In this document: in pieces, positions 54,272 through 64,000 of the stretch | Numbering within the stretch: the first letter of the stretch is position 1 | How the letters are laid out: the number at the start of each line of letters is the position of its first letter | Assembly (NCBI GenBank): GCA_016212475.1 | Contig: JACRGC010000009.1 | Span: 226,556-290,555, forward strand | Direction of reading: 5' to 3' | DNA: 64,000 nt | From: Candidatus Micrarchaeota archaeon | Lineage (GTDB): Archaea > Micrarchaeota > Micrarchaeia > Norongarragalinales > SBBD01 | Notes under the pieces: generated by a model | Database searches by the model: none | Seen by the model: only the letters and a program-made list of their open reading frames with translations | Told to the model about the DNA's origin: nothing | Program-made: the position numbers and the translations under genes

Positions 54272-55330
54272 CTATTTATTTGTCCATCCAACCCCAACAA
54301 TTTCAACCAGTTTTTTCTCCTCATCAATCTCAATTTTGCAATCCGGCAAAAACTGCCTTATCGTGTAGGCATTTGTTTTCAAATGGTTGGAAACCTTTTC
54401 AACCGTATAGGTGGTTTTTCCGTGTGCAAGAGCTGCAAATAGCATAATCTGATCGCCCATGTGGACATCTAGTGCACTGTTTGTCTTATCAAATTCCAAA
54501 AGTTTCAATGCAGCTTCCTTTCCCACTTCTTCAGCTGATTTTTTAATTTCCCCAAGGGCAAAAAAGCCTGCGCATGAGTTCTCATAATTTGTTTTCAAAA
54601 ACAGCATTGTTCCTTTACCAACCGAAGCGGCATTTTTAATTTCAATTTTCTTTTCGCAATCAATTCCAACCAGTGCCTTGAGGGCAGCATCTTTTTGCCT
54701 TCCCGCGATTTGCTGCGGAAGGTTTGATACAATTGAATATCCGGTAATTGAAACTAATTTTCCGCGTGAACTGAGATTTGCGCTCACCAGCTTTTCCGTT
54801 GCTTTAATTTCAACCTCAATTTTCCCTTTTCCAATCGGATAATAGCCGTAATTCTTGATTCCCATTTTTGCCGCATACCCAAATTTTGCCGAAATTGGAA
54901 GCAAAATCTCATTCAAATACTCAAAGCAAGGCGACCAATTGACGTGCGTTCCTCCCCGTAAGATCACTTGTGAATCCTTTCCGGAAAATGCAAGCGGAAG
55001 GCAGATTGTTTGGAAAATCAAACTTACCGAGCCAGCTGACTCTTTTACCTCTGAAACATCAAAAACATACTTTCCGCCTTGAATTGATTTTGGGGAAAAA
55101 CTTAAATTTAGAGAGTGCAATTGCGCTCCTTCAACATTAGCTGAGCAAATTTTTTCCATTGCGCGAACAGCTGTTAAATGCTGCGGAGCCAATCCTGGGG
55201 TTTTCCTTCCCGCCCGGATATTTTCAATTTCCAATGCTTTTCCGGTGATAGCTGAAAGTGCTAGGCTGGTTCTTAGAATTTGCCCGCCTCCTTCCAAATA
55301 GTTGCCGTCGATTTTGATGGTTTTTTCCAA
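54272..55330 (-). CDS. rtcA: RNA 3'-terminal phosphate cyclase
   Basis: IDGNYLEGGGQILRTSLALSAITGKALEIENIRAGRKTPGLAPQHL matches RtcA N-terminal signature incl. His for adenylylation region. Confidence 0.85.
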   Translation of the reverse strand: MEKTIKIDGNYLEGGGQILRTSLALSAITGKALEIENIRAGRKTPGLAPQHLTAVRAMEKICSANVEGAQLHSLNLSFSPKSIQGGKYVFDVSEVKESAGSVSLIFQTICLPLAFSGKDSQVILRGGTHVNWSPCFEYLNEILLPISAKFGYAAKMGIKNYGYYPIGKGKIEVEIKATEKLVSANLSSRGKLVSITGYSIVSNLPQQIAGRQKDAALKALVGIDCEKKIEIKNAASVGKGTMLFLKTNYENSCAGFFALGEIKKSAEEVGKEAALKLLEFDKTNSALDVHMGDQIMLFAALAHGKTTYTVEKVSNHLKTNAYTIRQFLPDCKIEIDEEKKLVEIVGVGWTNK

Positions 55331-61324: not shown

Positions 61325-61807
61325 ATGACTAAAGAATATGTGAAGTTTGAAACCCCAGAAGACATCCAAAAGAAAGTATTGGACCTTCTAGCTGATGTTA
61401 ATACCGCTAAAGGGCTCCTTCGAAAAGGAACCAACGAATGCACAAAGGCAATTGAAAAAGGAGAAGCCCAACTCGTCATCATCGCAGAAGATGTCGACCC
61501 GCAAGAAATCGTAATGCATCTTCCTCAGCTTTGCTCTGAAAAGAAAGTACCCTACGTTTATGTCAAGGAAAAGGCCGCCCTTGGAAAGGCTTCCAACTTA
61601 AAGGTTGGATCCGCTGCTATTGCAATCCAAAAGGCTGGAAATTCACAAAACGAAACCGCGCTCAAGGACATTGTTTCCAAGATGGGCGGGAAATTCAACT
61701 TCAAAACCGAGGAAAAGAAAGCTGAAGCGCACGCTGAAAAGAAGCCAGCAGCTGCAGTTGCTCCGAAGAAAAAAGTTGAAAAGAAAGAGGAGGCTCCAAA
61801 GGCGTAA
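61325..61807 (+). CDS. rpl7ae: 50S ribosomal protein L7Ae with Lys/Ala/Glu-rich C-terminal extension
   Basis: LLRKGTNECTKAIEKGEAQLVIIAEDVDPQEIVMHLPQLCSEKKVPYVYV (K-turn binding fold); SD AAGGTGAG upstream; ~40-aa KKAEA-rich tail. Confidence 0.85.
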   Translation: MTKEYVKFETPEDIQKKVLDLLADVNTAKGLLRKGTNECTKAIEKGEAQLVIIAEDVDPQEIVMHLPQLCSEKKVPYVYVKEKAALGKASNLKVGSAAIAIQKAGNSQNETALKDIVSKMGGKFNFKTEEKKAEAHAEKKPAAAVAPKKKVEKKEEAPKA

Positions 61808-63057: not shown

Positions 63058-63299
63058 CTCACCAAACAAAACAAGCAATGCAAATAATAAAAACACATAG
63101 CTGACGCTAGGGTTTAAAAAAACAAAATTTTGAAAAAAGCTTGCGCTAGGTTTCCAAAAAATAAAATCAGGGAAAAATGCGGAAAAGATGTGCCTAGTAT
63201 GCTTTAAACGCCATATAGGAAAGATTTCACTGAGAATATCCCTCAATTGTTTTAGTCATATCATGTATTCAATGAAATAACAAGAGAGGGAATTTTGTG

Positions 63300-64000
63300 T
63301 GTGTTTTGGCCTTTAGTAATGGTTAGCTCACGGATCGCTTGCGCTTTCCGTTTACACTCCCATCCTATCGAACTCATCTGCTATGAGCGACCTGTGCCGT
63401 TTCGTTTTAGGCATGGCTTCGTCCTTAGATGCTTTCAGGACTTATCCATTAGCGCGTAGCTACGCAGCTTGCCTTTAAAGACAGCTGCCATACCAGCGGC
63501 GCCGGTTCCCCGTTCCTCTCGTACTCAGAGAACCTTACCCTCAAACGGCAATGCACTTCTAGGAGATGCCACCGAACTGTCTCGCGACGTTCTGAACCCA
63601 ACTAACGTAGGTCTTTAATGGATGAACAACCCAACCCTTGGCGGCTCCTGCACCGCCAGGATGACCTGAGCCGATAGCGATGTACCAAACCGCGTGGTCG
63701 ATTTCTTCCCTTACGGAAAGGAAATCCCCAGCGTTCGTTTAACAATTAAGTTAGGTTACAGCTTACGCTGACATCTCACTTGACGAGGAACATTCCAACT
63801 AGCAAAATGCCAGTGTATTCTGAAACGAAAACTAAAATTGCGCGAACGCATGAAAAAGATCCGATCCTGCATTTTTCCTAAATAGGAAAATTGAAGATAT
63901 GAACTCTAGCACGCGACGAGCCTGTATGGAGTCTCATCGTTGACATTAAAAAATAAAATTATTTAATGTGTGAAATAGCCCGAATTTTGTTTGGGTGTTC
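63300..64000 (-). rRNA. 23S rRNA gene, 3' portion (partial; continues past window end), with internal insertion(s)
   Basis: Minus-strand matches to conserved 23S blocks: sarcin-ricin loop AGTACGAGAGGAAC (63516-63540 region), GGGTTCAGAACGTCGCGAGACAGTTCGG, GCTGAAAGCATCTAAG, 3'-terminal GAGCTAACC.TTACTAA. Confidence 0.85.
63691..63885 (-). other. ~195-nt insertion (putative archaeal rRNA intron) in the 23S helix-89 loop
   Basis: Flanking sequences ACAGGCTCGTCGCGTGCTAGAGTTCATATC | ... | GACCACGCGGTTTGGTACATCG are collinear with E. coli ACAGGCUGAUACCGCCCAAGAGUUCAUAUC-GACGGCGGUGUUUGGCACCUCG (CGCGUG/CACGCG stem conserved); intervening 195 nt is AT-rich and non-rRNA-like. Confidence 0.4.

Follow-up and report, generated by a model that had tools for sequence, protein, structure and literature searches.

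Two putative bulge-helix-bulge introns enclosing a 27-nt micro-exon at the peptidyl-transferase centre of a Micrarchaeota 23S rRNA gene

Introns with bulge-helix-bulge (BHB) junctions are known from archaeal 23S ribosomal RNA (rRNA) genes, as in Desulfurococcus, Pyrobaculum and Aeropyrum. The group I omega intron occupies position 2449 of the large subunit (LSU) gene, the I-SceI site, and bacterial 23S genes bear intervening sequences in helices 25 and 45 that RNase III removes without religation. Here we analyse a 23S gene that runs off the end of a 64,000-nt stretch of DNA (the window) from a Candidatus Micrarchaeota archaeon (GenBank assembly GCA_016212475.1, contig JACRGC010000009.1, positions 226,556 to 290,555 of the forward strand). 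Two stretches that behave as introns, intron 1 at A2450/A2451 and intron 2 at U2477/A2478, interrupt the peptidyl-transferase centre (PTC) and the loop of helix 89 (H89), leaving a 27-nt micro-exon between them. Position numbers follow the E. coli 23S sequence, checked at A2451, U2457, C2498, A2503 and U2506.

BHB introns also occur in 16S genes of Thermoproteales (PMC4496867), and LSU genes of Micrarchaeota contain introns of both the BHB and the group I type (PMC6125680; Nawrocki, Jones and Eddy 2018). Interrupted archaeal rRNA genes, those of Micrarchaeota included, are established. The pair described here shares with the archaeal rRNA BHB introns its highly conserved sites, sporadic occurrence, BHBs at the junctions and expected excision by the tRNA-splicing endonuclease EndA, and forms of 30-350 nt that lack an open reading frame (ORF) are common in that class. 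It differs in its DPANN host, in its sites (2450/2451 and 2477/2478) and in the 27-nt spacing of the two introns; intron 2 departs further in its unusually conserved interior and in a 3-bp central helix that also contains a purine-purine mismatch. In the same phylum and gene, PMC6125680 reports group I introns at 1923, 1931, 2500 and 2593, whereas the introns here match none of these positions and do not belong to group I. The omega intron interrupts the same universal GAUAACAGG stretch one nucleotide away, but here there is no group I core, omega-G or homing-endonuclease ORF, and relatives show a canonical BHB. Bacterial intervening sequences are likewise structured, sit at a 23S helix tip and occur sporadically among relatives; they differ in domain of life, enzyme and helices, while here the flanking loop is intact and a BHB fits the exact junction. 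No report of sites 2450/2451 and 2477/2478 or of a conserved H89 intron family was found in the literature searched, which did not include an intron-site catalogue. The locus adds two intron sites, and a micro-exon in the heart of the PTC region, to the heavily interrupted rRNA genes of DPANN archaea.

The host belongs to the Micrarchaeota (DPANN), its nearest public sequences being metagenome-assembled genomes (MAGs) of Micrarchaeota and Norongarragalinales. Rfam cmscan places RF02540 (LSU_rRNA_archaea) on the minus strand at 63294-64000 with 352.5 bits, covering model positions 2459-2987, the match being cut by the window end. The alignment holds an unaligned block of 198 nt within the H89 loop, between GAGUUCA and UCGACC. 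For the GGGGAUAAC block upstream of ACAGG, cmscan gave no credible match in the window, only a pseudo-alignment (posterior 0.3-0.6). The gene is divided as follows.

63294..63702, minus strand: 3' exon, E. coli A2478 to the 23S 3' end; RF02540 posterior ~1.0 throughout, the start at 63702 being set by the junction register (register d, below); 52% G+C.
63703..63898, minus strand: intron 2, ORF-less, 196 nt, in the H89 loop after U2477; 39% G+C; lacking in locus L003, present in L002, L004, L005 and L128.
63899..63925, minus strand: micro-exon of 27 nt, A2451-U2477, comprising the PTC strand and the 5' strand and loop of H89, bounded by two BHB cut sites.
63926..64000, minus strand: final 75 nt of intron 1 (A2450/A2451), likewise ORF-less; 31% G+C; L002, L004 and L128 have complete copies at this junction.

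A sequence-only reading of the window had predicted an insert of about 195 nt in the H89 loop. The insert measures 196 nt, and four other independent assemblies carry it at the same site. The strings quoted in that reading are all present and collinear on the minus strand, although its inner coordinates were 10 nt too low (ACAGGCUCGUCGCGUGCUAGAGUUCAUAUC lies at 63925-63896, not 63915-63886, and GACCACGCGG starts at 63699, not 63690), and its 30-nt micro-exon shrinks to 27 nt (A2451-U2477) once the intron 2 junction register is applied. The second, upstream insertion that it had only deduced is borne out by complete inserts of 107-131 nt at the same junction in three relatives, of which the window holds 75 nt. 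It had placed that insertion at the LSU-2449 omega position; the insertion stands, while the exact site is one nucleotide off (A2450/A2451) and not of group I type. GGGGAUA is absent upstream of ACAGG, as it said, and belongs to the PTC central loop rather than the A-loop; this lineage reads GGGGGUA.

Relatives were sought with the 30-nt conserved stretch as query, one genome per species, which returned four Micrarchaeota loci (L002, L003, L004 and L005). A fifth, L128 (GCA_053535475.1), and its Logan duplicate L129 were reached through L7Ae synteny, using protein homologues and their contigs. For more distant L7Ae relatives (P0019, P0022 and P0016) the rRNA genes are not beside the L7Ae cluster, and these yielded no further introns; look-ups with L24e/L7Ae (P0001) for sequence past the window returned only a 7-kb Logan contig, which ends within the 23S 3' exon.

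Both inserts are absent from L003 (MNVG01000014), which reads GGGGGUAACAGG...GAGUUCAUAUCGACCACGCGG continuously: GGGGGUAACAGGCUCGUCGCGUGCUAGAGUUCAUAUCGACCACGCGG across both sites and GAGUUCAUAUCGACC across the intron 2 site. L005 has the H89 insert only, with GGGGGUAACAGG continuous at the intron 1 site. Both inserts occur in L002, L004 and L128, with 107 nt between GGGGGUA and ACAGG in the first two; the complete copies of intron 1 in these three (107-131 nt) lie at exactly the junction of the window. The intron 2 site is occupied in the window, L002, L004, L005 and L128 by 179-199 nt, and is also filled in duplicate copies from Logan and one metagenome. The micro-exon is identical in six of six sequences, and in L003 it is contiguous with both neighbouring exons. 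The inserts, their positions and their presence or absence among relatives are thereby established directly. Since they are sporadic among relatives, fall between fixed nucleotides and leave the universal flanks intact, both stretches show the behaviour of introns rather than that of assembly errors or decay; because the flanking universal sequence is intact, their excision would restore a normal PTC and H89 loop.

Artefact or decay of an rRNA pseudogene would suit a source that is itself a MAG, and relatives' contigs often break in the rRNA operon (L001, L126, L127 and L131), yet we regard it as extremely unlikely, given that five assemblies from separate projects, independent of one another, share the insert positions, that the exons fit the model at posterior ~1.0 and that the introns bear conserved splice motifs. 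As to the breaks, two independent MAG contigs stop at the identical base (L126:12185 and L127:12118), starting CGCGGUUUGG, 8 nt past the 3' splice site of intron 2, and the L131 and L001 contigs also break within the 3' exon. This suggests that the intron region, or presence and absence of the intron within populations, breaks assemblies. Genes of this kind lead rRNA finders to wrong or truncated annotations, and assemblies break at them.

The rRNA genes of this lineage are interrupted elsewhere too. In L128, where the operon is complete, the LSU gene spans 5027 nt against a model of 2987 positions (L128:5657-10683, minus strand) and has at least seven inserts, the PTC pair included; its SSU (small subunit) gene spans 2404 nt against 1478 positions (L128:11639-14042), about 900 nt of it inserts. 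One LSU insert of ~910 nt contains an ORF of 235 aa, and BHB introns of 30 and 144 nt flank a second micro-exon, 25 nt long. In L003, ~1950-2220 is the published group I intron, listed in PMC6125680 for this contig as IB4.24 at LSU/1931, and L128 and L004 have a BHB intron tens of nucleotides away; because of this, both intron types share one region of the gene in one phylum. Further lineage-specific 23S inserts of ~105 nt occur at L003:2821-2927 and L005:1803-1904, where the reference alignment is too uncertain to fix junctions; one of them, in L003, follows CCAUUAAAG in the H91-H92 region.

BHB geometry was scored over every junction consistent with the intron-free reference. It was defined as a 4-bp central helix, each strand of which is followed on its 3' side by a 3-nt bulge that is cut between its second and third nucleotides. 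As a control we used six intron families of L128, L004 and L002 (353, 144-147, 46 and 30 nt, and intron 1 among them). Each gave exactly one reference-consistent junction with 4/4 central pairs, so the geometry is valid for this lineage.

For intron 1 the motif is canonical in L002, L004 and L128. Exon GGGG pairs with intron CCUC as the central helix H (4/4 pairs), the inner helix h' has 12 bp, the bulges are UA/A and AA/A (the slash marks the cut, here and below), and these BHB pairs have an ensemble probability of ~0.86. The strict hBHBh' is complete in these relatives. The window shows its 3' half only, the 5' half lying past 64000, and ends intron 1 in ...GAGA-CUCC-AU/A, with the bulge AU/A at 63927-63925 and offsets as in the relatives.

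63928..63931, minus strand: 3' strand of the intron 1 central helix, CUCC, which would pair with exon GGGG 2444-2447 beyond the window.

The terminal base of intron 1 is A or U. Outside the junction, intron 1 of the window has no clear similarity to that of L002 or L128. If the reading is right, the contig past 64000 should give CUACCCCGGGGGUA and then an intron start complementary to UCAACGAUGAGA.

For intron 2 the junction had first to be placed. In four copies the cut can slide over four registers, since the 5' side reads CAUAUC/U and the 3' side AAUC/GACC. L128 differs, with GAGUUCAUA/CUCUU at the 5' end and AAAAAUC/GACC at the 3' end, and therefore permits a splice point after U2477 or A2478 only. 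Among reference-consistent junctions, all five copies score best with register d, the cut after U2477. Of the four registers in two possible arrangements, worked through by hand, only the arrangement with each bulge 3' of its strand fits. The elements of register d in the window are these.

63901..63904, minus strand: exon strand of the intron 2 central helix, G2472-C2475 (GUUC), in which UUC pairs with GAA at 63706-63708.
63900-63898, minus strand: 5' bulge, A2476 U2477/A.
63705..63708, minus strand: intron strand of the central helix (GAAG).
63704-63702, minus strand: 3' bulge, AA/A.
63894..63897, minus strand: 5' strand of inner helix h', UCUU, pairing with AAGG at 63709-63712.
63709..63712, minus strand: 3' strand of inner helix h', AAGG, overlapping the GUAA loop and stem of the terminal hairpin described below.

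In all five copies the outer helix h is made of the native H89 pairs A2471-U2479 and G2470-C2480. The central helix has a mismatch of G2472 with a purine (G.G or G.A), followed by U-A, U-A (U.G in L128) and C-G. The two bulges are of 3 nt, AU/A and AA/A (UA/A in L002 and L004), and the inner helix is of 4-5 bp (UCUU with AAGG in the window, UCUC with GAGG in L002, L004 and L005, CUCUU with GAGGG in L128). A relaxed BHB with correct cut geometry is thus established directly at the sequence-restoring junction of intron 2, as canonical BHB geometry is, in relatives, at that of intron 1. Random cut pairs in these rRNAs match the quality of register d at ~5e-4. In a local control of 625 cut pairs no more than 12 nt from the junctions, which keeps the composition, register d takes one of the top two ranks in each copy and the top rank for their sum; since few of the 625 pairs rebuild the canonical loop, a BHB at a junction that does so is unlikely by chance. 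The sequence-only reading had likened the stretches to BHB-spliced archaeal rRNA introns and proposed folding the exon-intron junctions. Folding bears this out in full for intron 1 (relatives, and the 3' half-motif of the window) and in the relaxed form alone for intron 2, with splicing itself still deduced.

We consider it probable that both introns are removed by EndA at their BHBs and that RtcB-type ligation follows. Taken singly, intron 1 is very likely excised in this way, to judge by its canonical motif in relatives; for intron 2, excision by EndA is on balance likely. In the precursor each exon-intron pair would fold into a BHB, EndA would cut each 3-nt bulge between its second and third nucleotides, and an RtcB-type ligase would join the exons and circularise the introns, restoring the normal PTC strand and H89 loop. 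The two BHBs occupy different parts of the micro-exon and can both form at once; because the 5' strand of H89 pairs with the 3' exon, the micro-exon would stay tethered during the double excision. The relaxed BHB of intron 2 is plausible in this phylum because the epsilon-2 EndA of Candidatus Micrarchaeum acidiphilum (ARMAN-2) cleaves relaxed BHBs as well as the strict hBHBh' (PMC3239211; relaxed substrates also in PMC3488258 and PMC12397907). Such relaxed-motif cutting is what intron 2 would need, although that enzyme was assayed on pre-tRNAs, not rRNA, and comes from another organism than that of the window. The H89 intron could serve as a natural substrate on which to assay the broad-specificity endonuclease of Micrarchaeota.

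Several points weigh against this account. Cleavage by EndA, splicing, ligation and intron circles are all things that we infer, and intron 1 of this organism is represented by its 3' 75 nt alone. Neither EndA nor RtcB was found in the 64-kb window by a rough tblastn with an M. jannaschii EndA sequence and by Pfam on ten long ORFs, a scan in which RtcA (54272-55330) was the sole match of this kind. For intron 2, none of the five copies has the strict 3-4-3 hBHBh', there being three standard pairs and a mismatch. Its BHB lies outside the minimum-energy (MFE) fold, and imposing it costs 7-12 kcal/mol; the same test gives 10.6 kcal/mol for L128's 144-nt intron, a canonical one, so this cost is not disqualifying. 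Free folding favours two other structures. The first is a stable terminal hairpin CUUUCC-GURA-GGGAAG with a GNRA loop across the copies. The second, found in every copy, is a long hairpin between AGAGUUCA of the 5' exon and part of the intron, the U2477 at the splice point being bulged; the intron partner differs by copy (CGGAUCUUU, UGGAUUUUU, UGAUCUCU or UGAAUU). A closing helix AUCUYC/GGRGAU is possible as well. Apparent compensatory changes fit several of these mutually exclusive helices (BHB, terminal hairpin, P1-like and closing), and covariation fails to choose among them because the strands are polypyrimidine and polypurine and only five related sequences are at hand. Lastly, intron 2 is almost as conserved as the rRNA, which a passive BHB intron would not need.

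63705..63720, minus strand: terminal hairpin of intron 2, CUUUCC-GUAA-GGGAAG, in MFE and consensus folds of all copies, competing with the BHB.
63759..63834, minus strand: conserved core of intron 2, invariant or nearly so in five-sequence alignments.

The invariant blocks of the core are UAGUUUUCGUU (63834-63824), CACUGGCAU (63815-63807) and GUCAGCG within 63775-63759. Pairwise identity among the genomes is 64-92% for intron 2 and 76-94% for the adjoining 23S 3' exon. The fold energy of intron 2 beats 200 of 200 shuffles (z = -4.7). It has no ORF and an imperfect BHB, and its sequence is constrained to an unusual degree, in contrast to intron 1 of the window, which shares almost nothing with its counterparts.

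As a rival reading, intron 2 might be kept in mature 23S rRNA as an H89 expansion, or be cut out without religation in the manner of a bacterial intervening sequence, in which case the 23S rRNA would be broken in the H89 loop. An insert at a helix tip, the usual site of expansion segments and intervening sequences, nearly as conserved as the rRNA (64-92% against 76-94%), almost fixed in length (196-199 nt in four copies), strongly folded (z = -4.7) and with an imperfect BHB outside the MFE fold would fit such a role. L003, however, has an ordinary uninterrupted H89 loop, and on either side of the insert the universal letters of this loop, GAGUUCAU and AUCGAC, are intact, as they should be only if the loop is rebuilt. 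Of the 625 cut pairs, the one with the best BHB-like geometry is at the very junction that rebuilds the normal loop. The tip of H89 also lies by the factor-binding site of the ribosome, where a domain of 196 nt should interfere. We find retention or unligated removal rather unlikely.

The strong conservation could mean instead that intron 2 is an inherited, structurally constrained RNA of ~196 nt, of which the excised form, probably circular, is functional, or which has a role in cis in PTC assembly; the exon-intron helix could hold the H89 loop until a switch exposes the imperfect BHB. This seems to us unlikely, and a variant of it, an undescribed self-processing RNA, less likely still. A C/D-box small RNA in intron 2 was considered and set aside, UGAUGA and CUGA occurring only in L002 and L004 and being absent from the window.

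Self-splicing or catalysis by intron 2 itself, whether of degenerate group I type or of a class not yet described, with the exon-intron helix as guide and the core as catalytic part, is very unlikely. It could claim the P1-like element, that is, an intron segment complementary to the 5' exon AGAGUUCA in all five copies with the splice point at the bulged U2477, together with two GNRA-capped hairpins, the invariant core blocks, the high conservation, and the fact that LSU genes of Micrarchaeota do contain group I introns. Yet the registers allowed by L128 end intron 2 in A, so there is no omega-G, and no U.G wobble stands at the splice point. RF00028 searched against 63690-63910 and 63200-64000 found nothing at E<=10, whereas the positive control, the group I intron of 248 nt published for L003, was recovered under the same settings (E=8.2e-8). 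Intron 2 has no R/S-type P7, while the L003 intron shows the typical CAGAGACU...AAGAUACAGUCC core, and no other Rfam family matches intron 2. A group I register seemed possible from four copies (5' exon U after C2480, with G2481 as omega-G), but this register, the only one with both U and omega-G, would need G2481U, and the L128 junction excludes it. Excision by EndA at the relaxed BHB remains the reading that we prefer for intron 2.

The intron 2 core was also sought outside these genomes. A metagenome scan with GATGTCAGCGYAAGCTG gave 120 loci, one of them real (L103, a duplicate of L004), the others being nearly all an unrelated palindromic repeat of gut bacteria or chance matches. The 17-mer of the core recurs in a palindromic element, GTCCCCCTTGAAAAGGGGGATGTCAGCGTAAGCTGACAGGGGGAT, which has many copies in human-gut metagenome contigs (L006-L125, e.g. 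L011:6279-6295). A scan of viral contigs with TAGTYTTCGTT...CACTGGCAT gave four chance matches in coding DNA.

On its 3' side the 23S gene is followed by two small ORFs and then an archaeal L24e-S28e-L7Ae cluster. L7Ae (61325-61807, plus strand) has 160 aa with a Lys/Ala/Glu-rich C-terminal tail of ~40 residues, compared with ~122 aa in most of the archaea listed; close relatives were recorded with "tails of 170-204 aa". About 8 kb from the rRNA gene, at 54272-55330 on the minus strand, lies the RtcA gene for an RNA 3'-terminal phosphate cyclase (Pfam RTC, E=1e-75), and an RtcA gene is also near the L7Ae cluster in L127, L130, L131 and L132. RtcA may be relevant to RNA end chemistry.

Within the 3' exon, the PTC strand at 63674-63680 (minus strand) reads UCGCUAUCGGCUC, compared with UCGAUGUCGGCUC in both the archaeal model consensus and E. 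coli, with C at position 2503 (63677) and A at 2505 (63675), two sites that are otherwise nearly universal. The variant UCGCUAUCGGCUC is common to L002-L005, L126-L128 and L131, and the upstream block of the relatives is GGGGGUAAC instead of GGGGAUAAC (G at 2448). This PTC pattern is kept across this Micrarchaeota clade whether the introns are present or not.

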